Notes: a model not told the origin generated them from the sequence alone. A DNA stretch of 32,000 nucleotides from Candidatus Saccharimonadota bacterium (GCA_046350815.1 JAXLZO010000001.1:1140001-1172000); one strand, 5' to 3'. Numbered from the stretch's first letter, positions 2,105-28,809 are shown. A program made the numbers and translations.

Positions 2105-2151
2105 ACAGATTAACTAAATCATGAAACAAGGCTAAAAAATGAAAACAGATA

Positions 2152-5100
2152 TTACGATCGGAGCCATTCAGGAAGATCACTATTTGGGACAGAAGCATTC
2201 GGACTCGCTGCTGTAGTACCATCGGAAACAACCTGACCAGGAGCATTAAGAGAGAATCCGGAAGATACATCTCATTGTTCTTCTTGGAGTTGTACCTTTG
2301 ATTTTCTGCGTGGCTTCCTTGGTTTTGACTCGGTTGTGTCAGTAGTAGTATCAGTCGATGGATTCTCAGATGATTGCTGCTCTCAAGCAGTATTAATTAC
2401 AGAAGTGTCTTGAGATGTAACTCCAAGGGATACATCCATAGGTGATAGACTGAATGGAGATGTTTCTTGTATAGACTCTTCAATAACATCTGGATGAGTA
2501 GCACTTTCATTCTCAGCAACAGATACATCACCTTGAAGCCAATCTGGGATTTCCGATGAAGGAAGAACTATTTCTTGTTTTTCTGATGAAGGAGTTGATT
2601 CGCCTCATTCTACTTTTTGATTCTCTGAAGTTGTAAGATCTTCTTGAGCAACTGTAGCATTCAGAGTCTCAACTGAATCATTCGCATCACTCGTACCAGT
2701 CAACCAAGATGGCAGCTCGCTCGATGGTACATTATTTGATGAGTTTTGTGTATCTAATCCTTCATTAATACTCTTTGAAATTGGCATCGAAGGAAGAACT
2801 GATTCCTCTGTTGGAGATGGAGAACTAATCGACTTGAGCCAGTCCGGTATCTCAGGTGGTGTTGTTGATTCAACAGGAATATCCTTCTGAACTACTGTTT
2901 CTGGCATAAGGGAATCGGAGGAGGCAAGAGGATCACTAGGAGGAATTGTTGGTGTTGGGTTAAAATCAACAGCATTCTTGAGCCAAGACGGCAATGATTC
3001 GGTGGATGCTGACTGAGTTTCAGAGACTCATGATGGCGATGGAACACTCGATACCTGAGCTAGAGGATCAACCGTATTTTGAGGCACAACTGAGTCTCAA
3101 GAAACCAAGGGGGTTATGGATGTTTCAGGTAAGGATTTCTCAGGTATTGATTCAAGCTTTACTGTAGAAGTCACCGGGGATGGAGTACTCGGTTTTACCG
3201 GTGTCCCAGGCAAGCCATCATCGTGACCATGTTGGAAGAGCTTTTCAATAATCCAATCTTGAAATCAAATCGCATCATTTTTATTCGTAATCTTGAAGAA
3301 AACAAGAAGCATGAGAATAAGTCCTACAACGACTCAGAAGAGAATGCCTAATACTTGACCAATCAGAATAATTGTCCCCATAAATCATCCACTCGATGAT
3401 GATTCTCGAGGTGTTTCAGTTGATGGATCAATATCGCTTGATGGGATATTCTCAGATCCATGATAGATGATAATCTTGAGCTGACTCTTGAGAATATTTT
3501 TATTCTCAACTGTAATCTGAGGATCATCTTTAACATAAGAGAGAATCTTGAGTGCTTTTGCTTTATTCTCCTCAAGATTATTTGGTGCATCAATAATTTC
3601 CTTGAGAAGACCTCCATTACCATCTTTTCACATCACTTCTTCAGCATATGAACTCGTAGGTGGTATGAGTCCACGTATGGTATTCAGCGCTGTTGAAACC
3701 TCCTTACCAAGAGCATCGTCAGTCGCAAGAAAACTCTCAAGAATCGTATTCATATCAGTCACAAGTTTTGGATCAAGACCCGCACTTGCAATTGCTTTTT
3801 CAAATTCGATAATCGTTGTTGTTTTTTGGTTTTGATCGTACCATTCATCCTTAAGTTTACCAAAATAACTCATGAATGTTGCTCGAGATGCTTCAGGTAC
3901 CTGGGACTGGATCATCTCACGAAGTGCCTCAAGATTCGCTCGATCTTGCTCTCGAATCTCTGTAATCTCCTGATTTGGTTCAGGATCAACAGCTACAGCC
4001 GAAACAAAACTGGATTTAATAACAATTTCTTTACTATCAATTTTTTGATTGTTCGAGTCATAGAATGTCACACGAACCGTGCGACTTGCATCACGGTCAT
4101 TGAATCACTTTACTACATAAACTCAACCATTTCTATACGTCGGGGAATTGCGATTATCTTCATCATCCGCTGCATCACCGTTCAGATTCGAGTCAACATT
4201 GAGATTATCATCAATCGCATACTTCGCAACATTTCCTTGGGAAGAAATATAGAGTGTTACTTTATCATCAGGATAGTCGATCGTGACAGAGTTATTCACA
4301 GCTCGTGGTTGACTCAGAAGAATAGTACCATTGCTCGATGCAGCTGTCTTTATATTTCGAGTATCAACATGCACACTATCAGTTGCTGTAACTTCTTTAT
4401 CACCATCAGAAACTCTCATCGTAATATCCGCCTGGTCCTTTCACTCTGGAAGAATCATAGTAATACTATCAAGCTCATTTGAAGTAGCACCGTCTGGAAG
4501 TTCCCAAGTTACATTATTGTAAACACCACGGGTCGAGTTCACAAGAACAATCATTCGACCGATAGCAATATAGTCAAAGCTTGGTTTGAGATCATTTGTT
4601 ACCGTGATGGTAATGGTTCGAGTATTTGATACACCCTTGTAGAGCGCCTTCACCTTCGCTCGGTAAATACCTGGTCTTTGATATGTATAAGTAGCCGTTG
4701 ATCATGTAGCGTTCTTATCATAGAACCCATCGCCATCGAAATCCCATTTAAATATGGTACGATCCGTGATATTATCATCAAGGAGATTTGTAGTGTTTGT
4801 AGTAAATGTAACCTGCTTTCAAGCTATCACCGTATTTGCCGGTGCTGCAAGTGACGATTTAAGTGTAATCAAAGGGGTATTGCTATTGTCACTCTGGAGA
4901 GTGATCGCTGCATCTTGTGACAAAAGATCAACACTTTTTGATTTTACCCCATTTGAGTCCTCAAGAATGACTCCAAAATAATATGTATCATCAATGCGTG
5001 GGAGGACAAAGGTTGTCTGTGGAGCGCGTGTCACTCGAAGTCATTGTGGTTCACTATCTGTCTTGGTCCAATACGACCAAATATATGAGGTAATAACTCC

Positions 5101-7851
5101 ATCTGGATCCTGTGCATTAATCGCATTCACATTCACAATTACTGGATCTTTCGTGGTGTCAGCGCTTGTCACACTCAAACCAGACAGTGTTGGTGGAATA
5201 TTATCAACTTTCACCCATATTTCACGAGATGCACTTGCACCAGACTGATTTGATCGAACGGAAAGTCGTATAGGGAAACAACCAAGCTCATCAAAAGAAT
5301 ATGGAAATGTTTGAAGACTCGAAGTTTTTCCATTTGCTTTCCAAGAGTAAGAGAGATTTTGAGTTGTACCATCAACATTGAGACTATCCCGAGCAGATAT
5401 ATCAATACTCGATAGTCGAGAAATGGTATATCCTTCCTTCCCAACCCCACAAACACCTACTTCAGGAATAACGGTCTCACCAGCTTGAGATATACTGATA
5501 AGTGGAACTGGCGTATCCGAATCACCAACATAGACCACTCGCGAAACCGTATTCGCAATTCCAGTATTATCAGCACGTATAGTCAAGCGAACCGTATAGA
5601 TACCAGATCGATTATACACATGCGACATTTTACTATCTGGAACAGGGTTCGTTGTAACACCGTCACCAAAATTCCAAACAAATATTTTCGCTTCAGGCGC
5701 ATTTGCAACAAACAACATTGGATCACCAACTCGCACAATTTTTTGAGCTATTTTAAGATCAGCACCAAGGAGAGAATCAATGGTAATTTTCTTGCTCGTT
5801 GTAGTACTGAGCCCATTTGGACTGATCACCTCAAGGTCTACTGTATGTTCGCCTATTTCGGAAAGTTTATAAACACCAATGGCACCATTTCTCTGTGTAT
5901 CTATGAGCTCTCGTGGTTGTCCGTCAATTTTCCATCGATATTTGAGCTGATCTGCCGAATTAGTATCAGGATCTATGCTTTGAGTCGCATTGAGACGAAG
6001 AACATTTGGCTGTTCACTTGAAAATTTGGAGAGTGCAAAATTAGCAACTGGTGGCCGCGGATCAATAGTAATGACAACAAAATCTGTATCGGTTTTATTA
6101 TCAACAGTAGTAGCATTCAGTTTTACTGTATATTCTCAGACTTTCTTAAATCGATAATTAAGAGTTCCTCATTTGATTCTTGCAATGTCACGATTATCTT
6201 TGTTATCAATAATAATCCAATCATAAACCAGATTGAGACGAGAATTTGCAGTTGTTGTAGTGAATCTAAAATCATCTTGAAGAGATCCAGAAGTTTTTGG
6301 GGTAACAATACTCGCAATAGGATCACGAACCTTGAGAGTAATAGTTTTTCTTGTTACTTCACTTGAGTTATTCTTAAGAGCAAGTGATATATTATAATCA
6401 CCTTCTCGCGCATAAATTTGACGCTCAAGACGAGGTCATTGAAAATATGAAGTAGATCGTCAATTCCCAAAATCCCATTCTGTAGAGACAAATTGTGCGC
6501 CATCTTTTGAAGTTGATGCAGTCGCATCAATAACAAGTCCATTTCTTGCTTGTCCTGGAGTCACTTTCAACTCACTCAAATTATTAACGTTAATACCATT
6601 AATAAAAAGAGAAATATTTGCAAGCTTTGGGAGAACATTGATATCCGTACGGATATGTAGCGGAAGCACGTCAGTTTTTCCATTTACATTCTTACTATCA
6701 GAAGTGACATCAAGAAATACCGTATAGATTTTTTCATCTGGAAACGAATAAAGAAAAGACACGCCTCGTCCAATGATAACTTTTTCATTACGTGATCACT
6801 TAAACCACCAAACATAATTTTCATTTGGAATTTTCTTTCCAGAAGGATCTTTTACGTTATTAGCACGAAATGTAACCGTCAATGGGGCATTACCAGAATT
6901 TACACTCGAACCAATCTCTCAAGATATCCGACCAATATTTACTCATTCTTTAAATCCATTTATGAGACCTTCGAGTCCGGATGCTTCATCTTTGCTCTTT
7001 GGATTCGCAAGAACCTTTGAGAGAGCTACTTTAATCTTTGCAATTTTTGCAGCATTTACTGTTTTGACATCGTCAGGAAGTGTAAGACTCGATTGATCGA
7101 TAAGATTAGTGAGTTCTTGTACGGTTTCAGATTTTACACCCGTACTATTTTGTTCAAGAAATACCTTGATCATCAAGCGATCAAAATGAAACTTGTACTC
7201 ATCAAAAGTGCCAAGCATTACATCAGGAATTTCAGGATCTTGGAGAGCTTGAGCTGTGTCCACACCAATCACTGATCCGATTTGACGCTCGATAGTACTA
7301 CGAAAAGAAGTTGCTCATGCTTGAAGAATACCACCTTTTCCATCTTTATCACCGATCACAAATATTGTAATAGAGTATGCAAGAAAAATAAGTATGACTC
7401 CAAGAAAAGCATAAACAATGGTTTTCTTTGCGTTTTTCACCACCTCTTCATTTCATCATGAAACCATAATCTTACCACCTTGATAAATAATAAGGAGTAC
7501 ACATATAAGAGCTACGAAACCAAGAAGATAAACCACAATCGACTGAATATAATCAGTAAAAGTTCATCCAGTTGCTACTTTATTTTTAAGAGCTCATTCA
7601 AGCTCAGTTTTAGCAATTCCAGAAGTACATGCATCACCTACACACTGATTAATAATGGTCGCACCACAATCAGCATCCGTATAGAGTGAATCTGCAGTAC
7701 ATGCTGCGTAAGTAGTATTCACAAATCAAAGAGGTGATACTCAAGAATTCCCATGGATGAATGGAAAAAGGAAAGAAACGAGTGAAAAGAGACTCAAGAT
7801 AAGTCACACGAGTGGAACGCTCAGGCGCGTAGAATGAGATATTCGGTGCAT
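2152..7851 (-). CDS. Giant (about 1899 aa) surface protein: N-terminal TrbC/VirB2-like pilin domain, PKD repeat array, C-terminal TM helix and repeat-bearing tail
   Basis: A single frame runs from ATG 7851 to TAA 2152-2154 with TGA as sense. It joins track ORFs 6943-7272, 6460-6762, 5041-5829, 4819-5034, 4441-4653, 4123-4419, 3628-4071 and 2605-2994. N-terminus has a signal/TM segment, a 4-Cys stretch, and two TM helices flanking GGKIMVSGGNEEVVKNAKKT. At least eight PKD-type repeats are visible (TEWDFGNG, YRWKIDGQ, FVWNFGDGV, YSWKANGK, FKWDFDGDG, VTWELPDG). A TM helix (GTIILIGQVLGILFGVVVGLILMLLVFF) precedes an S/P/T/E-rich tail. Confidence 0.8.
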
Positions 7852-13300: not shown

Positions 13301-14158
13301 AAACTGCGGAATGAGTGTGAGTCCGTAGGGAATATTGATATCGATACGATCAACAATCTCCTGAGTCCGATCAAGAAGCTCTGGATGTTGCACCCAAAGA
13401 GATTTCATCTCATCTTCGGATAGGAGCGCGTGATTACCCTCCAACTTCGACGGCCGATCCGGATCATCAATCGATCGACCAGAAGCAATCGCCTGAAGAT
13501 AATCCTGTGGCTCTGAAAGATCTATCTTAGAATAAAAGACATTATGGGTCGCAACGATAGGAATCGAATATTTTGCAGCGATACGAATAAGCTCATCATT
13601 GATATGTCCTTGATAAGCAATATCACCCTGACTCATCACCTCAAGATAATAATTCTCACGACCAAATATATCTTGATATTCACGAATTCTCTCGAGGATA
13701 AACTCCTCACTACGACCAGTGGTAATATGCTGTGCAATCTCTCAGAGATGATTACCAGAAAGCGCGATAATATCAGAATGATACTTTCGAAGCAGATCAA
13801 GATCAACACGAGGACGATCAATATAATATCATTCCAATTGCGAAATAGTCACAATCTGAATCAGGTTACGATATCATTCAATGCTCGTAGCGAGAAGAAC
13901 AATTTGGTAGAGATCATTTGATTTTTCCTTCGATGCTCGACCAAGTCGAGAGATACTGCATTCCACTCAGATAATTGGCTTTATTTCTTGCTTCTTACAT
14001 GCCTTGTAGAATTCAAATGCTCCGTGAAGATTGCCAGAATCCGTCATAGCAATTGCCTGCATACCGAGAGATTTTGCTGTTTTTGCAAGCTTATCAGGAG
14101 TACCAAGTCACTGAAGAAATGAATAATGCGAATGAGTATGGAGATGAGTAAAAGCCAT
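10382..14158 (-). CDS. dnaE: DNA polymerase III alpha subunit
   Basis: ATG at 14158, TAA at 10382-10384, one frame. It joins track ORFs 12857-13639, 12146-12769, 11891-12121, 11465-11764 and 10823-11044. PHP-domain N-terminus is [30 protein letters not shown] and GLKALK-G-LGDTP align with E. coli DnaE HSDYSMIDGLAKT, IKPIVGADF and GLGAIKGVGEGP. An OB-fold-like C-terminus is present ([34 protein letters not shown]). Confidence 0.95.
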
Positions 14159-14204
14159 GGAAAAATTTTGGAGAGATTATATTGAAGAATCTCAATTATG
14201 CACA

Positions 14205-14234
14205 CAACAAAAGAAAAAGCCCCATTGCTGGGGC
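14205..14234 (-). terminator. Intrinsic terminator downstream of paralog 1
   Basis: Minus-strand GCCCCA-GCAA-TGGGGC (14219-14234) followed by CTTTTTCTTTTGTTG. The same hairpin recurs at 15067-15082. Confidence 0.8.
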
Positions 14235-14259
14235 ATGTGGAATGGAAATATACAAAAGA

Positions 14260-14937
14260 TCAGAATTTGTGATCTTCGATATATTTTTGTATGATTTGTG
14301 ATGATGATTCATTCATATGCATTGCATACAAATGACCGTTTTGATCAAATACTAGACATGCTGAATGATATTCAGGAGAATAAGAGAAAGGAGAGATAGG
14401 ATATCTCTCACTAACCCAATCTTCCACCTTTACATCGCCAGTATTGGTAATATAAATTGCTCGATGAGCTTTATCAAACCAATCTTGTACTTGTACAACA
14501 CCAGTATTGGTAATATAAATTGCTCGGAACCACCCTGATATCCTCATCCCAAATTCATGAATTGGATTAAAGAGATTGTTGTGTCGTGTAAAAAATGCAG
14601 CACGCTTCTGAAAATCTATAATCTGATCTACAGTTAAGCTGGAACTAATTTGCTCACCAAGCTTATCACAAAACAATACCTGCTCGTTTTCTAACATCAT
14701 TTTTATATCATCAAATGTAAGATGATGTGGATAATGTAAACGATTTCGAACTCCAATAATACGAGCCGTATGAATTGATATATACCCTTCCTGATGGTAT
14801 TGAATTACCCTCACCAAAGGCAGCATAATATCTGCATTGTCAGGATCTGTTTCTTTAGGAATTAAAATATTGTTCTCCCAGCCAATATCTGTTAATCTAC
14901 ATCCTAAAGCTAAATCTATCTCATTATCTTTATCCAT
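14260..14937 (-). CDS. Unknown-function protein, tandem paralog 1 (225 aa if TGA 14260-14262 terminates)
   Basis: ATG at 14935-14937 is preceded by AAAGAGGTAAGTGTT (SD-like). There is no internal TGA. The C-terminus ...MNESSSQIIQKYIEDHKF is homologous to paralog 2 and ends at TGA. I recognise no domain. It contains an internal 63-bp tandem duplication (RAIYITNTG twice). Confidence 0.7.
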   Translation of the reverse strand: MDKDNEIDLALGCRLTDIGWENNILIPKETDPDNADIMLPLVRVIQYHQEGYISIHTARIIGVRNRLHYPHHLTFDDIKMMLENEQVLFCDKLGEQISSSLTVDQIIDFQKRAAFFTRHNNLFNPIHEFGMRISGWFRAIYITNTGVVQVQDWFDKAHRAIYITNTGDVKVEDWVSERYPISPFSYSPEYHSACLVFDQNGHLYAMHMNESSSQIIQKYIEDHKF

Positions 14938-15006
14938 AACACTTACCTCTTTCAAAGATTACCTATGCTGCGCCGATAAGCTACAGACCAGAGAGTAATC
15001 ATTGAT

Positions 15007-15033
15007 ATGATATCAATATTACAATTATGTCAA
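15007..15033 (-). promoter_or_regulatory. Sigma70-like promoter of paralog 1 (TTGACA-N15-TATCAT)
   Basis: Minus-strand TTGACA is at 15028-15033 and TATCAT at 15007-12. The same architecture and near-identical sequence lie upstream of paralog 2. Confidence 0.55.
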
Positions 15034-15055
15034 AAACTTGTTATCATTATTTCAG

Positions 15056-15082
15056 AGAAAGAAAAAGCCCCATTGCTGGGGC
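15056..15082 (-). terminator. Intrinsic terminator downstream of paralog 2
   Basis: Same GCCCCA-GCAA-TGGGGC hairpin (15067-15082), followed on the minus strand by TTTTTCTTTCT. Confidence 0.8.
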
Positions 15083-15100
15083 TAGCTGAAGGGATGAAGA

Positions 15101-15850
15101 TCAGAATTCGTGATCTTCGATATATTTTTGTATCACTTGCGATGACTCATCGTTCATGCAAGCTCTACAGAGATGACCTTGATCATCATATACCACAAAT
15201 GCTTTTAAAGCTTTTGCATCTATAATATTTTGATACTCATTAAGTGGGTACACTTTATATCTATCTTCGCCAAAGAAATCATATATCAAAACTTGATTCT
15301 CATTGGTGACACCAATTAAACGATACTTTGCAATAAGGTTTACATGGGGTTGATTGAGTGGAGTGAACCAAGTACACGGCTTCGCAAAGAAAGACATGGT
15401 TTTGATAATTTGCTCATATTGATCTCGTGTGAGATCAGAGCAGATTTTACTACCATCTTTGTTACAAAACAATACGCTTTCTCGATTAACCACTTTTTGC
15501 TCAAGTAAGTGATACATAGCAAAATGATCAGTAAGATAATGTTTTTTTTCTATGCGAATATTTCGCATGTTTACATATCCATCTACGTACTGTACCATAC
15601 GAACACACGAAACGTGGTATATTATTTTAGTACCATCTTTCGATTTCGACGTATGGTGCTTGTAGTGATTATTTTCCCAAGTTCTATGCTTTGGGTCAAC
15701 AAAACATTTGGAAAATAGAAGCCACTCAAAATCACTTATCTCGTCTACATAAAATATATGTTTGGGCACGAATAAATTATTCACCCAAGCATCAGTTTTT
15801 AAAGACTGCACTAGCGCCTTCACGCTAGGATCAGTTTTATTTTCGGTCAT
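15101..15850 (-). CDS. Unknown-function protein, tandem paralog 2 (249 aa if TGA 15101-15103 terminates)
   Basis: ATG at 15848-15850 is preceded by AAAGAGGTAGATGTT. There is no internal TGA. The C-terminus ...MNDESSQVIQKYIEDHEF ends at TGA. Full-length but divergent homology to paralog 1 (VRMVQYVDGY vs VRVIQYHQEGY; ESVLFCNKDG vs EQVLFCDKLG). Confidence 0.7.
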   Translation of the reverse strand: MTENKTDPSVKALVQSLKTDAWVNNLFVPKHIFYVDEISDFEWLLFSKCFVDPKHRTWENNHYKHHTSKSKDGTKIIYHVSCVRMVQYVDGYVNMRNIRIEKKHYLTDHFAMYHLLEQKVVNRESVLFCNKDGSKICSDLTRDQYEQIIKTMSFFAKPCTWFTPLNQPHVNLIAKYRLIGVTNENQVLIYDFFGEDRYKVYPLNEYQNIIDAKALKAFVVYDDQGHLCRACMNDESSQVIQKYIEDHEF

Positions 15851-15921
15851 AACATCTACCTCTTTCACAAATTACCCATGCTGCATACCGATAAGTAACA
15901 GACCATAAGATAATCATTGAT

Positions 15922-15948
15922 ATGATAAAAATAATAGCATTATGTCAA
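15922..15948 (-). promoter_or_regulatory. Sigma70-like promoter of paralog 2 (TTGACA-N15-TATCAT)
   Basis: Minus-strand TTGACA is at 15943-15948 and TATCAT at 15922-15927. This duplicates the paralog 1 promoter. Confidence 0.55.
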
Positions 15949-16029
15949 GTACTTTTTCAAGGCTCTCTCCAGATTATGATTTGACGAGAAAAATAAGAAC
16001 ACTACCATGAGGCAATAATCAATCAAGAT

Positions 16030-16515
16030 ATGTATTTTCTCTCGGGACAAGATGAAATCATCGGACAAAAGTGGCTCAATCAAGCCGCAAAAATAGCTCT
16101 CCGAGCAACCTGCGAACGATCAAAATGTGGATGTGTTATTGTCTCAAACAACGAATGTATCGGAATATGATGCAATACTCCACCAAAAAGCCATGAATCA
16201 CAAAGAAGATGTAGCTGCTCAAAAGACGGATATCATAAAAAAGTAACGGATAAAACGTGTTGTATACATGCGGAACAGCGAGCTATTCTCGATGCTCTCC
16301 GAAACCATCCAGACAAAATCAATGGATCACGACTCTATTTTATCCGTCTCGATGAAGAGAATAAGCCATCTTTTGCTGGAAAACCCTATTGTACGATCTG
16401 TAGTAAGATGGCACTTGATGTGGGTATAGCCGAATTTGTACTCTCTCATCAAGAAGGTATTTGTGTCTATAATACAGAAGAATACAACGATCTCTCTTAT
16501 CAATATAGCGAATAA
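16030..16515 (+). CDS. Cytidine/deoxycytidylate (dCMP) deaminase-family zinc enzyme, 161 aa
   Basis: ATG 16030, TAA 16513-16515. HAEQRAI (H-A-E zinc/catalytic motif) and PYCTICSKM (PCxxC) are present. One in-frame TGA falls in IGI-G-CNTPP, where the family has Gly. Confidence 0.75.
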
Positions 16516-17563: not shown

Positions 17564-18895
17564 CTATTTCGTCATAAAAGTATCAAGAATTTTTCGTGAT
17601 TTGATACGAGATTTGAGGTCTTCGTAGTAGGCATCACCGGGAACAAGTTTCTCTCGAAGTCGAGTTTTCACAGTCTCATTCTGATATTCCGCGATTACCA
17701 TATCGATCTCTTTTGCTACTTCTTCATCAGTGATAGGAGCCTCAACGATAGATTCAAGCGCTCGAAGAATTGCCTGAGTTTCGAGACGGTTCTTGGCAAT
17801 TGGTGAGAGTGTTTCAGACTTGAAATCTTCAACCGACTTTCCTGTATGATTGAGGTAATCCTTGAGTTGATATCCTTGTTCAGACATACGAGCATTTTCT
17901 TGCTTGTAGGTGTCCTCAATCATAGCCTCAGTGGCTTTTGGTCCGATATGAATCTCACCAGTTGCCTTGAGAGCATCAATAATCGCAATCTCTGTATCGA
18001 GACGAGCTTCTGACTCTTTTTTCTTATAGATTTCTTGCTTGATAATATCACGGAATCCCTTCATATCTGTCTTGACTCCACGAAGTTGTTCGATAAATTC
18101 TTCATTCCATTCAGGTCGGTGTGGCTTTTCGATTTGTTCAATACTTACCTCAAAATAAACCTTTCTTCCCTTATACTCATCAGAATGATATTCTTGTGGA
18201 AATACAATATCAAATCCAAATTTGTCTCCAACAGCGTGAGCAACAAGATTCTCTTCGAATCCAGGTATAAATGAATTGCTACCAATGACAAGAGGAAAAT
18301 GATCTACCTTTGTCTCAGTAAGGGCCTTGCCATCTTTTGCCTCATATCCTTGGCACGAAAGGGTAACACGATCCCCTTGTTCTGCAACCTCTGATGAAGC
18401 CTCAAAACCATCTTCAGAATGACCATGAGCATCATGAAAATGAGTAAATCGATCTTCAATTGCCTTGATCTCTGCATCGATATCCGCATCAGTCACATCA
18501 ACAGACTTCATTTCTACTTTCACCGCCTTTACTTTGTCAGCGTCAAGGAGAGCAACAGGAGTCGTCTCAACAACGAGCTTGATTTCGAGTGGATCGATCG
18601 ATACAACAGCCTGAATTTCACCAGCTGCAGATGGAGTTACATCTGCCTTACGAAGTGCCTTCTGATATTCCTTATCGAGGAAAATATTGAGAGCTTCACT
18701 CTGAATAGTCTGAGCACCGACCTGAGCGAGAACGACATCATCAGGAATATGTGATCCTTTGCGAAAACCCTTAATAGAAGCATTTGTACGAGCTGCATCG
18801 ATAGCTTTTTTGATATATTCACCAAAAGCTTTGCTATTTTCCTTGATAGTGAGCTCCACTTCAACAGGAGAAAGTTGTTTCTTTTCGACAATCAT
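17564..18895 (-). CDS. tig: Trigger factor (ribosome-associated chaperone/PPIase)
   Basis: Intact 443-aa ORF ending in TAG. N-terminal ribosome-binding motif GFRKGSHIP matches the trigger-factor signature GFRxGxxP. An FKBP-like middle follows (VIGSNSFIPGFEENLVAH). No in-frame TGA. Confidence 0.9.
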   Translation of the reverse strand: MIVEKKQLSPVEVELTIKENSKAFGEYIKKAIDAARTNASIKGFRKGSHIPDDVVLAQVGAQTIQSEALNIFLDKEYQKALRKADVTPSAAGEIQAVVSIDPLEIKLVVETTPVALLDADKVKAVKVEMKSVDVTDADIDAEIKAIEDRFTHFHDAHGHSEDGFEASSEVAEQGDRVTLSCQGYEAKDGKALTETKVDHFPLVIGSNSFIPGFEENLVAHAVGDKFGFDIVFPQEYHSDEYKGRKVYFEVSIEQIEKPHRPEWNEEFIEQLRGVKTDMKGFRDIIKQEIYKKKESEARLDTEIAIIDALKATGEIHIGPKATEAMIEDTYKQENARMSEQGYQLKDYLNHTGKSVEDFKSETLSPIAKNRLETQAILRALESIVEAPITDEEVAKEIDMVIAEYQNETVKTRLREKLVPGDAYYEDLKSRIKSRKILDTFMTK

Positions 18896-19022: not shown

Positions 19023-19096
19023 CTCCCTGTAGTTTAGTGGAAGAACAAGGCACTCCTAAGGCTTAGACACAAGTTCGATCCTTGTCGGGGAGACCA
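19023..19096 (+). tRNA. tRNA-Arg (anticodon CCU), CCA encoded
   Basis: Hand-folded cloverleaf. Acceptor is CTCCCTG/CGGGGAG and D arm is GTTT-AGTGGAA-GAAC. Anticodon arm is AGGCA-CTCCTAA-GGCTT, with U33, CCT, A37 and a 31:39 A/G mismatch. Variable loop is 4 nt, T arm is ACAAG-TTCGATC-CTTGT, discriminator is A, then CCA. Confidence 0.8.
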
Positions 19097-20553
19097 AATG
19101 AAAAATCCATGTTTTTTATCTCAGAAAAGAGTTTGTTTTCCTGAATTACAAGCTCTTTTTTCGTGTTTATAAAAAGTTCGATTTCTAGTTTTGCATGGAT
19201 GATAGCTTTTTCAGAGGAATTACCCATTTCGTAGCGTTCAGAAAGGCTTTCTATGAGTTCGAACATTTCTCATACCCTCTTCTCAATATCGTACTTATTT
19301 TTGCTCTGAAGTTCGCGTTTTTGAGCGAGTAAAATAACAATCTTTTCAGAAAAATTTGCTTTTTGAGCTTTGTAATCTTCGTTACTTATAACTCATTCTA
19401 GATATCCATCCATGAGCCTTTTTTCTTTGATTCGAATTTCTCAAATTTCCAGATCAATTCCCTTTGCTTGCTCCGCATGACTTGCTACTCTTTCAGATAA
19501 TAATTCTTTGGCAATTTGAACAAATAACGGATACATGTCCTTAGGAATATAGAACTCCTTAAGACGTTGAATAATAGCTTCTTGAACCTTCTTTTGACTA
19601 ATATTTGCACGAGCTGAAGATCTCAAGTTTTGAGAGCGATAATATATGTATTTATCCTTCTTGATCTCACTGGTCAAAGTAATACCAAATTCATCTTTGA
19701 TCATTCATTTATAGAGATAATCAATCTTAATTTCCTTGTTATACGAATAGAATCCTCTTTCTAAATTTGCAACCTTCTGAAACAAAGAAGATGATATTAT
19801 TGGCTCATGCTCCCCTTGATATATTTTCCCAGAGTAACGCATCATTCCAATATAAAATGGATTCTTAAACGTACGATCAAGTGCTTGATAAGAAAAGGTA
19901 AATCACTTGAGGGATCCATATTTATTCTGAAAATATGTAGATATATCAGGTGTACTTCTTTTTTGTTCTCACCGCATTTGAAACATCTCCTTCACAATAT
20001 TGGAAGTTTCCTTATCTATCTCAACTCATCGTCCAACTATTTTGCCATCTTGAACTTTTGTGACATTTTGGTATCCAAAAGGAGCCTTATAAACACACTT
20101 CCCTTTCTCTACACAAGTAATCATTCTTGCTTTTACATTTCTAGCACGAGTATCATTATCAAATTTTGCCATTCAAAAATTCAGAAGAAGCATAAAGAGT
20201 TCACTCACCTGCTCTCAAAAATATTTTTGAGATGATGTATAAATACCCTTAATATATCCCTCTTCCAGTAAGCCAAGAACTTTGGCACTATCAGTATTAT
20301 TACGAGAAAGACGACTCACTTCATCCACAATGATGAAATCTACTTTTCATTTTTTACAAAGCGATACCATGGAGTCAAAAATTGGTCTCGTTCCACTCTT
20401 CTTCGCACTTGCAGATTCAAAAAGTGTATCAATGAGAGAGCATCACTCTTGTTCTAAAACTCGAGTACAAGCAGACAGCTGAGATTCAATAGAGTTTTGT
20501 TGTTTATCATCCCTATCCGTAGACTTTCTACAGTATATAATAGCCCTATTCAT
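19063..20553 (-). CDS. Large serine recombinase / integrase (496 aa)
   Basis: ATG at 20553, TAA at 19063-19065; joins track ORFs 19441-19704 and 19063-19266. N-terminal resolvase catalytic domain is MNRAIIYCRKSTDRDDKQQNSIESQ (YxRxST serine) ... FIIVDEVSRLSRN. Recombinase domain shows KAPFGY and NPFYIGMMRY. The C-terminus is long and coiled-coil-like. The last 34 nt overlap the 3' part of tRNA-Arg. Confidence 0.85.
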
Positions 20554-20696
20554 ATCCTCAAAATTATTTTTATAAATATATCATAAATTATTCTTGTGAA
20601 TTTTCAATTATATCCAGCAATCATTCGATAAAATTAGTAATTATTTCTTCTGATTCAATGATTTGATCATCCGACCAATCTGTAGGGAAATATTTC

Positions 20697-21734
20697 CTAC
20701 ATTCTTCAATCGACATCATGATCAGAGATTTTAATTTTCTCAAGTATTTGAGTCCAGTGCTCAGCATCTTCTTTCATATCTTTCATAAGTGTCAGGAACT
20801 CTCAGGAGTTCTTCAGTACATTCTTAGTATGTGCATGAATAATCTCCTTATAGAGAAGTGCATACACAGGACAGATGCCACGTTCTACTAATCACCGTGC
20901 GTGTCCAAGAAATATATGAACTCTCATCATACTCTTGCTGTATTCTTGAATGAGAGAGAATTCTACTTCTTCAGGTTTTCTATAGAGTGTTATAGCTTGA
21001 GCAACTAACTTCTCAAAGAGTGAAGTATGATTACTAAGATAGTTCTTCATGAGACCAAGAAGGTTATCTTCTACGAAGAGCTCATCTATTGTGTAATTTT
21101 GAGCCAATTCACGTCTTATTTCGAGTTCGACTCGTGTTATATCATCTTGAAGAAGATAATCTTGATAAAGGCGATTCTTTCACTTTTTGAGAATATCTTC
21201 TTTCTTGTTATAAATACGAATAAGACTACGTTTATTCTCAGAGGATTTTTTATTGCCAATATAGTATGTTTCAGTTATTCCACCTCTTCCAAAGAAGATA
21301 GCTCCTTTTTGAGTAAGCTTTGAGAAACTTTTCAAGATGGTGGATATAGGTGAGAGAATATCGATACAGATATCAAAACGCCTGAGGGGTTTGTTTCCAA
21401 GTGGTGAAAAATGAGATAGGAGTATATCGTAGCATCATTCTTTTCCTTCCGTTCGAAAACAAGAAGAATAGAGAGCAACATAATCTCTCGTGGGGATATT
21501 TCCTTTTTGTGCTCACTTGAAGTACGAAAAAAGAGTAACTCAATTCTTTGCAAAGATGATTTGGTAAGCAAATTTGGGATTTTCAGCTTTCGTACAATGA
21601 TATTCTCCATATGTGAAAGAATTAGAGTTATCAAAGTCGACACCTTCAAAAATTTCTTCAGAGAGAAACGAGGTATATATTTCTAGATGATCGATACCAA
21701 AATGGTAGATCTGATGAGTTTTTACATATTTCAT
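20697..21734 (-). CDS. Rep_trans-like (PF02486-type) replication initiation protein, 345 aa
   Basis: ATG at 21734, TAG at 20697-20699, checked codon by codon. It joins track ORFs 21540-21734 and 20892-21107. The core TYYIGNKKSSENKRSLIRIYNKKEDILKKGKNRLYQDY...ITRVELEIRRELA resembles the (Y)IGsr-S-...-riYdK...tRvElq pattern of rolling-circle/conjugative-transposon initiators. Confidence 0.6.
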
Positions 21735-21789
21735 AATGTTAAGAGAGAAAAGCGCATTGCAATGCCAAAAATAAAGGCATATCTAGATA

Positions 21790-22075
21790 TTTACTGATCC
21801 GACGTTATTCTGTCGGATCGAAGAAGGGTAATTACTCCTGAGAAGAACTTCTTTTTCTTTGATGCTCAATTGTGTTGAAAGTTTGCATCCGCGTACAAGT
21901 CGAACGGTTGAACCGTCTCGACTTGTGAGTCGCGGACATGCAAACGAGCAACCGCGACTTGACCCAGATACAAACTTTCGAATACCAGCATCTAACAAAG
22001 AAAAAGAGAGCTTGTGTGCGGCACAAACTCCCATTATGGATCTTTTGATGTGAAATCGAGTTTTCCCCCGGGATG
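21790..22075. other. GC-richer non-coding cluster of nested perfect hairpins (candidate replication/transfer origin or structured RNA)
   Basis: Hairpin 21796-21803/21812-21819. Nested helices GATGCT 21861-66/AGCATC 21987-92 and GAAAGTTTG 21877-85/CAAACTTTC 21971-79 enclose a 14-bp hairpin (21895-21908/21912-21926) and an 8-bp hairpin (21928-35/21952-59). A further hairpin lies at 22008-22030. Stop-free junk ORFs appear on both strands here. Confidence 0.55.
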
Positions 22076-22080
22076 AAAAA

Positions 22081-23121
22081 TTATCCTTGGGCTTCCCAAT
22101 GAAGGAAGATCATGTCTTTTTTTATCTCGAATATATCTCAATTTTGATATTTTTTCCGAAGATTTTTCCGAATAGTTCGAAGGAGCGAAGTTCTAATATT
22201 TTCTCCTTGAATATCATTTGCACTCAAATATTTAAATGTGCTTCTACTGCATTGATCCCAAAAATTGACCAATTCTCAAACAGTTATCTTCTTGGTATCT
22301 GGAAAGCATGTAAAATATTGAGCAAGAAAAGAGAGAAATTCACTAGCCTTACTTTTTTTAAGAATAAAAATATGGTTATTAATGAAAAGCTTTCAATCCC
22401 TAAAGGAAACCTGAGAGACATATTCTTTTGATTCTGATCTCTTTAAGTCATCGATAAGATTTTGTATAGTTTCACTATCGGCATGAAATGAACAAGTTGC
22501 ATGATATGATTTATCAAGATTGAGTTGCCTATTGAGTTCATCTTCACCAATATCATCCTCAATCTTTTCTTTTATCAAGTCTAATATTTCTGAGACTTCT
22601 GTTTGAGAAATAGAAGTCTCCATAATTGGTGGCAGGGTTGTAGGTATGGGTTTTATGAACTTCTCAAAAGAGAGCTGAATTTGTCTTTTCCCTTGTTTAT
22701 CGACGGTAAAATACCCTTCTTTTTCTCCCATTTGAAGGATATTTTCTGATATATTTTTATGAACTATTTCTATGACACCAATATTGTGAAGTTCTTTGAT
22801 GGTATTACGTCTTTCCCCCGCTATTCGTGCAAATGCGGTTGCATCTGGAAAAAACTGATTACTAAAAATATTTTCAGAATAGTGATTTGTTTTCTTATAG
22901 GTTAATAAGCAGCATCCATCGAGCATATCTTGTTCAGGCAATGGCATATCTTCACCATTCTCCTCCTCGTATATTTTCCGAAGCTTCTGAATCTCCACTT
23001 TTATTCAATAAGATGTCTTTATAGCCAATAAAATATCTTGAAATAGATCTCGTATTATCATCTTTTCAAGGGAAGATTTTGTATTGTAATATTTAAGGAA
23101 TTTTGTGAAGTGTTGGTTCAT
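22081..23121 (-). CDS. Hypothetical protein (up to 346 aa; start uncertain: ATG 23121, ATG 23061 or GTG 22998)
   Basis: The frame of track ORF 22393-22998 continues through two TGA codons to TAA 22081-22083, checked codon by codon. It starts 43 nt downstream of res on the same strand. I recognise no domain with confidence. Confidence 0.5.
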
Positions 23122-23164
23122 GATTAAATTTTCTATACCAAATATTAATCTCTAAAGTTTTTTC

Positions 23165-26100
23165 TTAAATAAGAATCTTCTGAACCAGATCATCGAAACT
23201 TCGTATCACATCATACTTCACATCAGTGTGGCAGAGAGACTCAAAATGTTTTTTTGCATATCGAATTTTCAGATCTTCTGTACCTTTGAGATCAAGTGAA
23301 CTCAAACTTCACTTTGTCTCAGCTATGAAGTATATGTACTTCACATCAGACCTATCAAATACGATTGCCCAGTCAGGATTATAATTCCCTACAGGAGTAG
23401 ATATCTTAAATCCACTCGGGAGCTTCGCATATACAAGTACTTGCTCAGTCTCTAGTTCTGAGGCAAAACTTCTTTCTACTTGCGAATCAGTTTTTACATA
23501 GTCATAGATATGCTTATTCACTCGGAGGATATTTTCCTTGAGAGATCCTCTAAAATTCTTAAGTGTAAAAATATCAGTCGAATACTTCTGATCCGTTTTT
23601 GTATAAGTGATATTACTGATAAGTGTGGATGCTTTTTGTTCTTCGATAAGTCGAGAAACTTTTTTGATAAAGTCTTCAGGATTCTCACGGAAAAGTGAGA
23701 ACTTCAGTTCGTGTATCCGCCTCAGGATTTCTGCAATAGTTCATCTGCGAAGGTTGGTATTCTTTGCAATCTCTCACACGAGATCATAGCGAATATTACC
23801 GAGGATATTTGAAGTAAGATTGGTTTGCCTTTCGAGCTTTGTGAGACTTGTATGTGATCTTAAGCTTTCTTCATCGATAGTGTCATTTTGTGTTGCAATT
23901 GTAACACTAACCGTAACTCGATTAACTTCTAAGTGAGCATTCAAACTCTCGACACTTTTCTCTATGAGTTCTTTACTATCAAAGTCTACTTCATATGCAG
24001 TGATGGTATTGATTTTGGACCAGAGATCTTGGAACTCTTTCTTCGAGAAGTTATCATTTGGTTTTAGTATTGCTTCATTCACATTGTCTTCCCGACCATC
24101 ATCTACCGCCTTATAGTTATCTGTCGAGTATACATCTTGAACTATCTTCACGATCTCAGGAGTGAATGAAGAAAACTCTGTCGGGACTGCAAATATTTTC
24201 GATTCGATATCTGCGATACATTTCTCTGTAACCTTATAATCAGAATCAAGATATCCCTTCATCTTCATATCGAAGATAAGGTTCATAGAACTCGAGTCAT
24301 CAAATATAAATTTCTCTCCGAGATCATTTTTGAGTACTCGACCCTTAAAGACATCGGTTGTCAGTTTTCTCGGACGATTCGAGAGAGTGTCTAGGATCTC
24401 TTTCTGTAGCTCACTCGCAAACGTCTCATACGATTCGCTCGCAACTACCGTGAGAGTGTTATAGTCAAAGAACTCATTCTCGAGAGTATGATGATCCATT
24501 CGATCACCGTTTGCATTGACACAAATTCGGAGTCATCGTCCTATCTCTTGTCTCTTACTGATAGTAGACTGTGACATCTTGAGTGTACATATCTGGAATA
24601 CATTCGGATTGTCCCATCATTCACGAAGTGCAGAATGAGAAAAAATAAACCTGGTCGGCTCCTCAAAACCAAGGAGAACTTCCTTCTTTTTCATAATGAG
24701 ATCGTAGGCTGAGATATCATCACTTCCGCCTTCTCATTTTTTCTCACTCGAATCTATGAATTTTCACTTCTTGTCTACTGAGAAGTATCCATTATGAACA
24801 TCACTCGCCTTGAATCTCTCAAGATATTTTCGATAGTCTCATTCAAAAAGAGTTTGCTCACGAAGTATATCCTCGTATTCCTCTTCAAAAATCTGAGCAT
24901 ATTCTCCTGGTATAGGATTTCCTGATTCATCATACCCACGATACTTTGCCACTTCATCTATGAAGAAAAGTGAGAGTACCTTGATCCCTTTATGGAACAT
25001 AGTACGCTCTTTCTCGATATGGGACTTGATCGTCTCTCGTATCTGGATACGTCGGATATGCTTATCATCCACATTTCCCATAGCTTGTCAGACTCGGATA
25101 GTGACGCCATTGGTGAATGATACTGTGTTCGTAATTCCGTTGATCTCCTTCACGATGAATCCTCTATACTGTTCGAGTTCACCTGATAGCTCATAGAGAT
25201 TGTCTCATTCTTCTACTTTTTTGAGTACTTTCTTGATCCCTGAATCTTGCTTTATTTCCATCTCCATCTTGATATGTGCGGATGGAAAACTCTTGGTGCT
25301 GATATTGATACGGTCAAGGAAGAGGAAACTATTTGTCCCCACATTTCCGACTACTTCGATTCATTTCACATTGATTTTCTTTACGAGCTTTTGATTATAT
25401 GCATCGATAGCATCGAGCCTGTATATTTTATTGAAGTCTTGTTTGTGTGTCGCTGAATACCTTAGGGTGAAAAGTGGATGAAATTCATGAAGGGTATTCT
25501 CAGCCTTATCTCAGAATCTTTGAGGCTCATCGATAATGAGTATTGGATGAGTTCACTTGATTATATCGATAGGCTTTTGTGATCCGAGACTATCAAGAGT
25601 TTGGTATATCTTTTTTGATTCTTTACTGGTTGTCGCAAATGCCTGATAGTTCATGACGATCACTTCGATATTGGCACTCGATGAAAAGTTCTTGATGTTT
25701 ACGAGATTGGATTTGTTCCCAGTATCATAGATAAAAAATCGAATCTTCTTTCCATAGAGTTCCTGGAAGTGCTCGGCGGTGATCTCGAGTGACTTATTCA
25801 CTCATTCACGGATAGCAATCGATGGTACCATGATAATGAACTTACTCCACCCATATTGCTTGTTGAGTTCGAATATCGTCTTCGTATAGACATAGGTCTT
25901 ACCTGTTCCTGTCTCCATCTCGATAGTAAAATTCTTTCCTCACTCGAGCTTCTTCGAGACAGGGAGTCATGATTCATTTTGGATGTTATTGATATTGGAA
26001 AGGAGAGTTTCTTCGGATATCTCGAGTGGCTTATTCGAAAACATCTCTTCTATTTCGATTCTTTTTCCGAAAAGATTATCATCTATCACTCTTCGATCTG

Positions 26101-26200
26101 CGATATCCTTTCGGAATCCTTTGGTTTGTCATACAAAACAATTCACCACCGCATTGGTAGCATCGTTTTGATATCATTGTTGTTTGAATTTGAGTTTCAT
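23165..26200 (-). CDS. res: Type III restriction-modification system, restriction/helicase subunit (1011 aa)
   Basis: ATG at 26200, TAA at 23165-23167; joins track ORFs 25553-25801, 24839-25081, 23774-24499 and 23309-23521. Motifs: [11 protein letters not shown] (Walker A), LIIDEPQRF (DEPx motif II), [34 protein letters not shown] (motif VI). C-terminal PD-(D/E)xK nuclease is YNPDWAIVF...YFIAETK. About 18 in-frame TGA. Confidence 0.92.
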
Positions 26201-26218
26201 AGATTCTGTATGGTGCGA

Positions 26219-28171
26219 TTATATAACTCGGATATCTGTTTCAGGTGAGAGCTTCGAGAATCTTGTCTCGAAATTGATACGATCGGCATCACTCTGAAAA
26301 CTCGAATCCCTAAATACGACTCGCAGTGGACGGAGTGAGGCAATCTCATCGACGAGTGCGAAGTCTACGTGATCATCGAAACATGCTATGAGAGAGTCAC
26401 AAGCCACGGAGTATATCGTAGCACCATGAGACACTCGCTTCTCTATCGGGAGATCGAGCGTGAGACCGAGGTCGAGCATCACCTGAGTGAGGAGATCATC
26501 TCCAGTTCTATCTTCACGGATATTGCTCTCCATCTCGAAGAGTCTATCCTGAGTCACCTCTGTTGGATGATAGTAGACATCCTTCATATTCGATGTATCG
26601 AGACGATACACACGGAATCCGATATCCAGATTTTCGATACCCTCTTTATCTTTATTCTCTTCGACTATCTTCTTCCCGGCTCTGCGTATGCGCTCCTTGC
26701 CGATCTCACAGATATTACTATATCCTGCCTTATATGCCTCACTCTCCTTATCTGTTTCCTCTGGTATCTGCACCATGATGAACTTCCTATTCCCTTCATC
26801 TTCAGCATTAAGCTGTATCACTGCATGGGCTGTAGTAGCTGAGCCTGAAAAGAAGTCGAGAATGATATCTCATTTTTGACATAACGAATCGATCATTTTA
26901 TTTACTACATTTACTGGTTTAGGATTGTCAAATGGTAATCCAAGAGCATCATCACTACCTCAAAAATATAATAGAGATGATACATTCTCAAATAGGTTCT
27001 CTTCAAGAAAGTACATTCTTCTGGGTTGGACAGTATTATCATTTCCAAAATATATTTGATTTTGTTTTAATAATGCATCCATAGAACTATCAGTAAATCT
27101 CCATCATTTTTCAGGAGTTGGACATGGTAATTTTGTTATAGGGTGGACTAATGGTCTATGTGAACGTGTCTCGGGTTTATCTGGAGCTGCCATAGATACA
27201 GATTGAAACACTCTTCAACTATCGGATATCAAATTGTATGCCTTTTCTCATTCGCTAAAGTTTTGCATAGATATCCAATCTTTAAATTCAAATCTAACTA
27301 AATCCGAAATTCATCAATGTTTAGATATAAGTTGCTTAGCTTTTTTTATTATCTTCTCAGCATTTTCTTTCTTTCTTTTAAAATCATTTCAATTTTTGAA
27401 ACTTTCTTTGTTTTTACAATAAAATAAAATGGATTCATGTTGTTGTGCAATTCCGACAACTTCTCATTTTGGATTTCTTTTATCCCATATTATTGTTCAA
27501 AGGTTATTCTCTTCACCAAATATCTCACTTAATATTTTATCGAGATTTGTATATTCATTCTCATCCATATGTATAACAATAGCTCCGTTATCGGAAAGTA
27601 AGTCTCTCGCTACTACGAGTCGCTCATACATCATCGAGAGCCAGTCACTATGGAATCGACCATTGGTATCTGTATTTTTCACGAGTCGTCCTCACTCCTC
27701 ATCTACTATCTCGAGTCACTCCTCATATTCATCTTTCGATACTTTGAAGTTATCGGTATAGACGAAATCCTTTCCAGTATTGTACGGAGGATCGATATAG
27801 ATCATCTTCACTTTCCCGAGATAGGATTCCTGGAGGACCTTCAGGACTTCGAAATTATCTCACTCGATATAGAGATTCTCTGTCGTATCCCAGTTCACAC
27901 TGTCCGCGACTACTGGACGGAGAGTCTTAGAGATCGGGGTATTTGCCTTTAGGATACTCGCTCGCTTTCCTGGCCAGTCGAGACGATATCGTTCTTCTCC
28001 TCACTCTACGAGTGTTGACGAGAACATCTGACGGAAGAGATCATAGTCGATAGCTTTCGTGATAGTGCCATCAGCGTTCTCAGTCTCGGTGATGATATTC
28101 GGGAAGAGTTTGGCGAGAGCTTCGATATTTGCCTGTATGATATCAGGAGTGAGCATGTCGAGTTTTTGCAT
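26219..28171 (-). CDS. mod: Type III R-M Mod subunit, N6-adenine DNA methyltransferase (650 aa)
   Basis: ATG at 28171, TAA at 26219-26221; joins track ORFs 27497-27682 and 26219-26821. Motifs: [12 protein letters not shown] (DPPY motif IV), [48 protein letters not shown] (FxGxG SAM motif). The central segment (about 26900-27450) is AT-rich and presumably the target-recognition domain. Confidence 0.92.
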
Positions 28172-28182
28172 AGGGAGAGAGG

Positions 28183-28809
28183 TTATGAGATGGTGAGATT
28201 TGAGAGTTCTTTTTCTTTTTCCTTTAGGAGGACATTCAGGGATACTTTTTTCTTGAACTGTTTCTCGGTGGATATCTTATTCTGGAGTGCTTGGATTTCG
28301 TTTTTGAGTGTCGTAATCTTTCGTTCTGTGGCAACTATCTCTTCGAAGTCATGCGAGTCTATCGGTGCTTCTCGGATAAATTTCTTGATAATATTTTGGT
28401 AGACTTTCTCGAGTGTGATACCATGGAAATCGAAATCGATTTGCTCGTCCCATTCGGAGAAATAGTAGGATTTATTTGGATCATTCTTCAGAGTGATACC
28501 ATACGCTCTACTATCCGCATAGGTGAAGAGATAGAGTATCGGATATGGTATGAGTGTATCTATGACCTTCAGGACGGATATAGGTATCTTTTTTTCCTTG
28601 AGTTCTATCTCGAAAATCTGGAGTTCTTCGACCAGTGGAGTCGGAGGGATAGAGAGTGTCTCGTGTGAGAGTTTATATTTCCAAGTGATCTTTGCGATAG
28701 CATCAGTGAACTCGTCTTTTATCCTCGTTCAAAGAGAACCTTTTCTGAAAAATGTAATTTTCGGAATAGGCTTATCTACTTTGCAAGATGGAGGGAGAAG
28801 GAGTTCCAT
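28183..28809 (-). CDS. DUF4391-like protein (208 aa), unknown function
   Basis: ATG 28807-28809 overlaps the SNF2 stop (TAATG). TAA at 28183-28185 lies 11 nt before the mod ATG. Sequence features: IPKITFFRKG..., ITWKYKLSHETLSI, VEELQIFEIELKEKKIPISVLKVIDTLIPYPILYLF, and a C-terminal coiled coil. The DUF4391 (PF14335) call is from memory of that family and its usual position between an SNF2 helicase and a methylase. Confidence 0.55.

Follow-up and report, generated by a model that had tools for sequence, protein, structure and literature searches.

Bacteria that translate UGA as glycine are thought to have lost UGA termination entirely. Elsewhere, one triplet may carry both meanings, as in Condylostoma, karyorelict ciliates and Blastocrithidia, where the ambiguity between stop and sense is resolved by the proximity of the mRNA 3' end. 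Genes may also be expressed from messages that lack a stop, such as brfA of B. subtilis, which is made from a non-stop mRNA and regulated by trans-translation. The arfA gene of E. coli is likewise regulated by trans-translation and expressed from a non-stop mRNA, by means of a hairpin or terminator located inside its open reading frame (ORF), and the tail of its product is hydrophobic and unconserved (PMC8012679). In recoded E. coli deleted for RF1, genes ending in UAG are read through, frameshifted, or rescued by transfer-messenger RNA (tmRNA), ArfA or ArfB with degradation (Ma et al. 2018, eLife, PMC6207430). Another example is provided by the code 11-compatible phages predicted for Gracilibacteria and Absconditabacteria, which contain no in-frame TGA and whose TGA stops are backed by other stops (Liu et al. 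2023, mBio, PMC10746230); this state has been read as kept by selection rather than as due to recent arrival (PMC10746230). The locus described here consists of two tandem paralogous genes on the minus strand of a 32,000-nt stretch of DNA (the window) from Candidatus Saccharimonadota bacterium (GCA_046350815.1 JAXLZO010000001.1:1140001-1172000). They represent a selected chromosomal gene that functionally ends at UGA, in a host that reads UGA as Gly.

The window is UGA-recoded, with UGA encoding Gly. When TAA and TAG are taken as the sole stops, its fragmented ORFs merge into long genes, including dnaE (1259 aa), a surface protein of 1900 aa, type III restriction genes and a helicase, and TGA falls at invariant Gly positions, marked # in DnaE (GRGSAA#A) and in helicase motif I (DSV#L#KT). 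Across the 15 window genes other than the paralogs, 152 of 551 Gly codons (27.6%) are TGA; the essential dnaE contains 21 such sense TGAs and the 1900-aa gene 30. All 14 of these genes that are complete end in TAA or TAG, while g1 runs off the window edge. TGA closes an ORF in only 2 of the 17 window genes, namely the two paralogs, so that within the window the pattern is not that of a genome-wide ambiguous stop/sense code.

The original prediction, made from the sequence alone, had singled out these two genes as free of TGA, and this holds: none of their 16 Gly codons (10 in paralog 1, 6 in paralog 2) is TGA, an outcome with a probability of ~0.006 at the rate of the other window genes. The two proteins are 31% identical (E 5e-24) and share the C-terminal pattern QxIQKYIEDH(K/E)F, their ends being QIIQKYIEDHKF and QVIQKYIEDHEF, each followed directly by TGA. 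After spacers of 25 and 18 nt, respectively, an identical GCCCCA-GCAA-TGGGGC hairpin with a T-run stands behind both genes, and it occurs twice in the window against 0 expected occurrences. Under code 25, paralog 2 would be extended by Gly and 17 more codons through the terminator to TAA at 15047, and paralog 1 by Gly and 92 more codons across the dnaE ATG (14158) to TAA at 13981; the 92-codon frame of paralog 1 is hydrophobic. At the other end, the Shine-Dalgarno (SD) sequence AAAGAGGT located 7 nt before the ATG is found only in the two paralogs among 16 window gene starts, and TTGACA-N15-TATCAT stands in front of both. The features claimed beforehand were all found as described; the explanations proposed alongside them are weighed below.

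Homologs were sought among 5.8 billion clustered proteins, by an exhaustive profile search of 1.84 billion representatives and by a metagenome scan, and DNA was retrieved for a family set of 17 gene copies from at least 13 independent assemblies. The family is very small, and its sole relatives sit at one locus: every copy with visible flanks is bordered by the same deoxycytidine monophosphate (dCMP) deaminase gene on one side and by dnaE on the other, and no related contig spanning the locus lacks the cassette. Relatives carry one cassette each, and the window carries two in tandem, with paralog 2 preceding paralog 1. No mobility genes are adjacent, the serine recombinase and tRNA-Arg genes lying 3-4 kb away, beyond tig. 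This recurrence establishes a stable chromosomal locus and excludes the chimeric assembly that had been raised as a concern; moreover, the sequence at the par2-par1 junction has diverged from the upstream region of which it is a copy, and is no collapsed repeat.

Four allele classes can be distinguished, the par2-type and par1-type of the window and two further classes represented by L012 and L013. Orthologs of paralog 2 at the same locus are 67-100% identical, and L008 is a par1-only haplotype positioned directly beside the deaminase gene. Between classes, the proteins are only 27-41% identical and synonymous sites are saturated (proportion of synonymous differences, pS, 0.65-0.75), which rules out rapid recent diversification as the source of the divergence. 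The ends of the cassette behave differently, as the promoter, 5' untranslated region (UTR) and SD are kept in all alleles at ~80-95% identity across classes, and the last 12-14 codons, the spacer and the terminator are also held in common. Within the par2-type, the ratio of nonsynonymous to synonymous substitution rates (dN/dS) is 0.2-0.6, compared with 0.04 for dnaE and 0.08 for tig, as expected of a real protein-coding gene that evolves relatively fast. To judge from these sequence comparisons, the locus is an old polymorphic cassette slot whose ends are homogenised or strongly constrained. Between the same two genomes (window versus L001/L010), the synonymous substitution rate (dS) amounts to 1.06 for dnaE, 0.42 for paralog 2 and 0.27 for the deaminase gene, and this unevenness points to a recombination mosaic around the slot. 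An integron gene cassette (attC) was considered and rejected: every cassette brings its own promoter, UTR and SD, an integron integrase is absent, and the sole recombinase, a large serine recombinase, is encoded at a tRNA gene.

One explanation offered in the original prediction was recent horizontal acquisition from a standard-code bacterium or phage, in which case the TGA, SD, promoter and terminator would be foreign signals not yet ameliorated. Each of these features is of the textbook kind seen in standard-code bacteria, the family is an ORFan, and the GC content of the paralogs (34-35%) is below that of their housekeeping neighbours (39-41%). However, the same locus with housekeeping flanks recurs in every related assembly sampled, independent assemblies being too many for an artefact, and the four classes share these flanks despite saturated synonymous divergence. 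The GC content at third codon positions also lies within the host range. Furthermore, the searches yielded no donor, since no homolog outside the locus was found in 1.84e9 protein representatives, GTDB representatives, IMG/VR, INPHARED, PLSDB or PHROGs. Recent acquisition is therefore largely refuted and must be considered very improbable.

The coding state of the family is uniform. All 17 copies end in TGA, and none contains an internal in-frame TGA. Gly occurs in 39 alignment columns, and TGA is absent from all 46 column-codon combinations, which at the host frequency has a probability of ~3e-6; an equilibrium expectation for TGA is reasonable here, given the saturation of the allele classes. 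The avoidance is specific to the reading frame, as the other two frames of the family contain TGA trinucleotides at the usual density (78 and 180), and host genes contain 5-7 in-frame TGA per kb. In dnaE orthologs at 93% identity, TGA and GGN codons have been swapped at 6 of 49 Gly sites, and this rapid exchange implies that the TGA-free state of the family must be maintained. Internal TGAs might also have been hidden by code-11 gene calling, and three truncated family entries were therefore examined; the truncations were traced to a frameshift in a T9 homopolymer (L017) and to a contig that is chimeric or rearranged (L016), with no internal TGA. The L017 copy (about 94-835), split by the frameshift, may be a pseudogene or contain a sequencing error, and in L016 (394-903) the 3' half of the gene is replaced by unrelated sequence, which may reflect a chimera or a rearrangement.

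Constraint on the protein extends to the very end of the TGA-bounded frame. Nowhere is the protein better conserved than in its C-terminal 8 residues, and the last codons show mostly synonymous variation (ATA/ATC/ATT, ATC/ATT, CAC/CAT, TTC/TTT). Beyond the TGA, spacers of 18, 23, 25 or 26 nt separate it from the terminator across the 17 copies; orthologs consequently enter different frames, none of which is conserved past the TGA. The tails, of which there are at least five unrelated ones spread over two or more frames, abound in F, L, I, V and C, and the predicted read-through C-termini would include ...EDHEF-G-SFDIFPFHMPQ..., ...EDHEF-G-SSSLQLAPAMGLFLSLK and ...EDHKF-G-SFVYFH.... Coding constraint thus appears to reach the final F and to be lost after the TGA, and the ortholog alignment proposed as a check bears out the claim that conservation of the frame stops there. 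The next in-frame TAA or TAG follows after 11 codons in 3 copies, 17 in 1 (paralog 2) and 27 in 7; in the remaining 6 copies it is either >50 codons off or past the end of the contig. The terminator is invariant in orthologs except for its loop, which is GCAA or GUAA (both GNRA); in 3 of the 17 copies the GCAA-to-GUAA change creates an in-frame UAA within the loop. Under code 25, the terminator precedes the next in-frame UAA or UAG in the other copies, 14 of 17.

Although noncoding, the sequence after the TGA is conserved because of its pairing in a hairpin (H1) of 16-18 bp. The UGA is the first triplet of the 3' arm of this conserved structure, the 5' arm consists of the codons K-Y-I-E-D-H, and the loop reads C(G/A)AAUU(C/U). 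In paralog 2, the outer stem is gone as a result of a 7-nt spacer deletion. For the 80-88-nt 3' modules, which comprise H1 together with the terminator, folding energies range from -23 to -31 kcal/mol and z values versus shuffles from -3.6 to -6.1 (-25 kcal/mol and z = -4.8 for the 86-nt module of paralog 1), and H1 alone folds at -9.1 to -18.8 kcal/mol across copies (-12.8 kcal/mol in paralog 1). Among 11 unique sequences, five stem positions vary and pairing is kept at all of them, with two-sided changes at two positions (C-G/U-G/U-A and G-C/G-U/A-U). H1 offers one reason why the TGA cannot easily mutate to TAA or TAG. With the UGA in the ribosomal A site, the 5' arm of H1 lies inside the ribosome, and H1 is thus unlikely to act as a classical downstream recoding stimulator. 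A selenocysteine insertion sequence (SECIS) was rejected on geometry, as the UGA itself opens the 3' arm and no homolog continues past the UGA. No Rfam match was found in 13900-16200.

Such an arrangement could also be taken for genuine, context-dependent or conditional termination at UGA, another of the possibilities originally raised. Residual or acquired RF2-like activity, or stalling and rescue at limiting tRNA-Gly(UCA), would end translation on this mRNA with the aid of the nearby 3' end. The exact coincidence of the TGA with the end of constraint, right behind the most conserved residues, would be explained, as would the invariance of the TGA in 17 copies next to variable spacer positions; a TGA-free body is what would be expected if UGA can stop on this mRNA. 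Standard-code relatives with RF2 also exist within nominal Gracilibacteria (PMC8629427). Nevertheless, the sense TGAs of dnaE and of the 1900-aa gene mean that general UGA termination must be negligible. Nothing was found to support a context rule either: the base in the +4 position of the terminal TGA, T, also follows 22% of sense TGAs, as frequently as it follows other codons, which leaves no simple tetranucleotide rule. The position of the H1 5' arm inside the ribosome and the distance of the terminator, which at 18-26 nt downstream is too far for known recoding stimulators, count against this explanation as well, and to our knowledge no UGA release factor is known in the group. In addition, prfB has been reported absent from BD1-5 genomes, not being found in any of them (PMC6851277). 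On balance, genuine termination appears improbable.

The explanation preferred here, whose chances we put at about even, is that the two paralogs stand in tandem as alleles of one polymorphic chromosomal cassette, specific to the lineage and readable under both codes, in which UGA is read through into an unselected tail and most terminated transcripts are non-stop. The anatomy, the conservation, the frame-specific avoidance of TGA, the end of constraint at the TGA and the polymorphism of the cassette are observed. The cassette would be a self-contained unit made up of a sigma-70-type promoter, a structured 5' UTR of ~70 nt, an SD, a TGA-free ORF, H1 and a GC-rich terminator with a GNRA loop. 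Because the host decodes UGA as Gly and, according to the literature, lacks RF2, the ribosome would most likely insert Gly at the UGA and enter the unselected tail. In most alleles it would then run to the 3' end of a terminated transcript, meet no stop and have to be rescued by tmRNA or an alternative system, the same non-stop logic as in arfA and brfA expression. Rerouting to non-stop rescue, as the original prediction had suggested, is hence the most plausible consequence of the terminator preceding the stop in most copies, possibly a deliberate one.

Several points weigh against this explanation. Read-through, the non-stop fate and any regulatory purpose are steps that we infer from the arrangement, and the three copies with an in-frame UAA in the terminator loop would terminate normally. 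RF2 is kept in some bacteria labelled Gracilibacteria, including standard-code relatives (PMC8629427). The protein family has no match in Pfam, PHROGs, PADLOC, NCBIfam or a PDB profile search; Foldseek of the paralog 1 model found no match in PDB or BFVD (TM <0.2) and thus no recognisable fold; and no copy of the cassette on a mobile element was found in IMG/VR, INPHARED, PLSDB or PHROGs. A non-stop fate alone does not account for the TGA-free body, for which tig provides a different source: this gene (17567-18895, minus strand) uses TGA for none of its 22 Gly codons in the window, and two orthologs (L009 3192-4640; L011 2-1399) are likewise free of it, with P ~0.0008. The paralogs are thus not the only genes to avoid TGA, and expression-linked codon bias could have produced their TGA-free bodies. 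The tig genes of distant low-GC Gracilibacteria (L014, L015) have TGA at 15-16 of 21-22 Gly codons, which suggests a gene-specific, perhaps expression-linked, avoidance of UGA in the present lineage.

Developed into a full alternative, codon bias would mean that highly expressed genes avoid UGA for speed or accuracy and that the terminal TGA is kept only as a structural nucleotide of H1, an mRNA-stabilising 3' structure, with the short tail or an occasional non-stop ending being harmless and serving no function. Besides tig, the near-consensus promoters and the only strong SD sites in the window agree with high expression. The TGA, moreover, pairs with the C of the His codon and with neighbouring positions, and a change to TAA or TAG would cost a pair that could be restored only by altering the conserved His. 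The choice among the other Gly codons differs, however, as tig shifts to GGA and GGT and the cassette family is enriched in GGC and GGG. Codon bias also leaves unexplained why all four ancient allele classes end in TGA, why a conserved terminator stands ahead of the next stop, and why a hydrophobic 92-codon frame runs over the dnaE start. It is accordingly regarded as an unlikely account.

If the paralogs are indeed dual-code cassettes with a read-through ending, their compatibility with both codes is likeliest to be kept through exchange with a code-agnostic mobile gene pool, or through a need for the product when UGA is not decoded as Gly. The second possibility can be extended to a sensor or effector of the code state: the product, bearing a junk tail or arising from a non-stop message, would normally be destroyed, and a clean, stable end would arise only when UGA is not read as Gly. 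The trigger could be RF2 supplied by an invader, or tRNA-Gly(UCA) that has been depleted or cleaved. Such a device would jointly cover the TGA-free body, the invariant UGA, the early terminator, the indifference to the frame of the tail, the unusual SD and the arms-race-like alleles; in a variant of the idea, the cassette would be made for expression in a standard-code partner or prey cell. This extension is highly speculative and is put forward as a long shot.

The coordinates of the cassette features are collected in Table 1. A perfect 17-bp palindrome, ATTGATAT-C-ATATCAAT, covers the -10 element of the paralog 1 promoter (15001-15017) and is also present in most orthologs; upstream of paralog 2 of the window it is degenerate. 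This palindrome may serve as an operator for a dimeric repressor. The 5' UTR of ~70 nt (14938-15000 and 15851-15915) is common to all allele classes and folds into a stem-loop with a GAUUAY...GUAAUC outer stem that leaves the SD unpaired. Paralog 1 contains an internal tandem duplication of 63 nt (14413-14526, copies 86% identical), which encodes RAIYITNTG(V/D)V(Q/K)V(Q/E)DW twice and is missing from the other allele classes. Downstream of the cassettes, dnaE has its own -10 element. For this reason, and because it is paralog 1 that comes after paralog 2, an attenuator in which ribosomes entering the terminator govern dnaE was set aside.

Table 1. Features of the two tandem cassettes and their 3' regions (positions counted from the first nucleotide of the window).
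Feature	Position	Strand	Remarks
5' module of paralog 2	15851-15948	-	-35 TTGACA 15943-15948, 15-nt spacer, -10 TATCAT 15922-15927
5' UTR (~70 nt) and SD of paralog 2	SD AAAGAGGT 15858-15865	-	7 nt before ATG
Coding sequence of paralog 2, par2-type allele	15104-15850	-	249 aa, MTENK...QKYIEDHEF, no in-frame TGA
Terminal TGA of paralog 2	15101-15103	-	End of selected ORF
H1 of paralog 2	15096-15118	-	Inner 8 bp only: GAAGAUCA / loop CGAAUUC / UGAUCUUC
Intrinsic terminator of paralog 2	15056-15083	-	AGCCCCA-GCAA-UGGGGCU + U-run, 18 nt after TGA, before next in-frame stop
5' module of paralog 1	14938-15033	-	-35 TTGACA 15028-15033, -10 TATCAT 15007-15012 with upstream TG
5' UTR and SD of paralog 1	SD AAAGAGGT 14945-14952	-	Within the 14938-15033 module
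Coding sequence of paralog 1, par1-type allele	14263-14937	-	225 aa, MDKDNE...QKYIEDHKF, no in-frame TGA
Terminal TGA of paralog 1	14260-14262	-	End of selected ORF
H1 of paralog 1	14246-14286	-	8+8 bp, 1x1 internal loop; loop CAAAUUC; 3' arm opens with UGA
Intrinsic terminator of paralog 1	14209-14234	-	GCCCCA-GCAA-UGGGGC + U-run, 25 nt after TGA
Read-through frame of paralog 1, unselected	13981-14259	-	Overlaps dnaE promoter and start; coding not conserved in orthologs

For the protein itself, a first AlphaFold model was unusable, with a predicted local distance difference test score (pLDDT) of 43, and a second model, of paralog 1, reached a pLDDT of 69.5 and a predicted template modelling score (pTM) of 0.68; the latter was the one used for the structure search. 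A match in IMG/VR to the terminator sequence (L018) turned out to be an unrelated GC-rich phage terminator located after a TAA stop, and is regarded as chance or convergent.

The remainder of the window contains further genes of the recoded lineage; ssrA and smpB are not among them. Two very large Ser/Thr/Asn-rich predicted surface proteins occupy positions 1-7851 on the minus strand, one of more than 700 aa that runs off the window edge and the other of 1900 aa; both have hydrophobic N-terminal segments, and their genes contain 9 and 30 in-frame TGAs, respectively. On the other side, tRNA-Arg(CCT) (19023-19096) adjoins the large serine recombinase gene (19066-20553), which is followed by two ORFans, type III restriction res and mod genes, a DUF4391 gene and a SNF2-type helicase gene. 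GC content drops to 34% across 19-23.5 kb, and the whole segment (19023-32000) has the look of an integrated defence island; in-frame TGA is frequent in its genes, which are therefore native to code 25. The closest GTDB genomes are metagenome-assembled genomes of Gracilibacteria or Peribacteria with 38-39% identity in trigger factor, an identity so low that the lineage must be poorly represented, and one close relative is labelled Candidatus Peregrinibacteria at NCBI.

The significance of the cassette depends on which explanation applies. If the read-through model is true, these cells may exploit read-through and ribosome rescue for the control of a protein. A possible outcome is that their chromosomes, too, share in the code-agnostic gene pool hitherto observed only in phages; the least likely outcome is that UGA can still end translation in special circumstances. 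For annotation, the locus carries a warning, as neither table 11 nor table 25 yields the right protein for these genes. The polymorphism of the cassette, the hairpin that contains the TGA, the TGA-free tig and the published precedent of code 11-compatible phages (PMC10746230) go beyond the original prediction.

Compared with known systems, the cassette resembles several of them in part. In common with Condylostoma, the karyorelicts and Blastocrithidia, a triplet that is sense inside genes stands at the ORF end near the 3' end of the transcript. Those systems, however, are eukaryotic and genome-wide and rely on eRF1 and poly(A)-proximal cues, whereas here a single cassette family, 2 of 17 window genes, is concerned. 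As in RF1-deleted E. coli, the ORF closes with a codon that has ceased to be a stop for the cell; that strain is engineered and its codon unassigned, while the cassette is natural and long conserved and its codon is assigned to Gly.

The likeness to arfA and brfA lies in a hairpin or terminator placed inside a formally open frame ahead of the stop, in a hydrophobic and unconserved tail, and in a product that would depend on ribosome rescue. In contrast to ArfA and BrfA, which are rescue factors of ~55-72 aa that recruit RF2, the cassette proteins comprise 212-249 aa, are unrelated in sequence and polymorphic, and belong to a lineage reported to be without RF2. Finally, like the code 11-compatible phages, the cassette is tied to a UGA=Gly host, contains no in-frame TGA, has TGA at the end of its ORF and is readable under codes 11 and 25. 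Unlike them, it is chromosomal, located between the dCMP deaminase gene and dnaE, lacks homologs in phages and occupies a polymorphic slot; its backup stops are 11 to 92 codons away and mostly past the terminator, and its TGA forms part of a conserved hairpin. The locus is thus best classed among the dual-code-compatible genes, as a new variant that is chromosomal and polymorphic, distinguished by a conserved UGA-containing hairpin and a probable non-stop ending.

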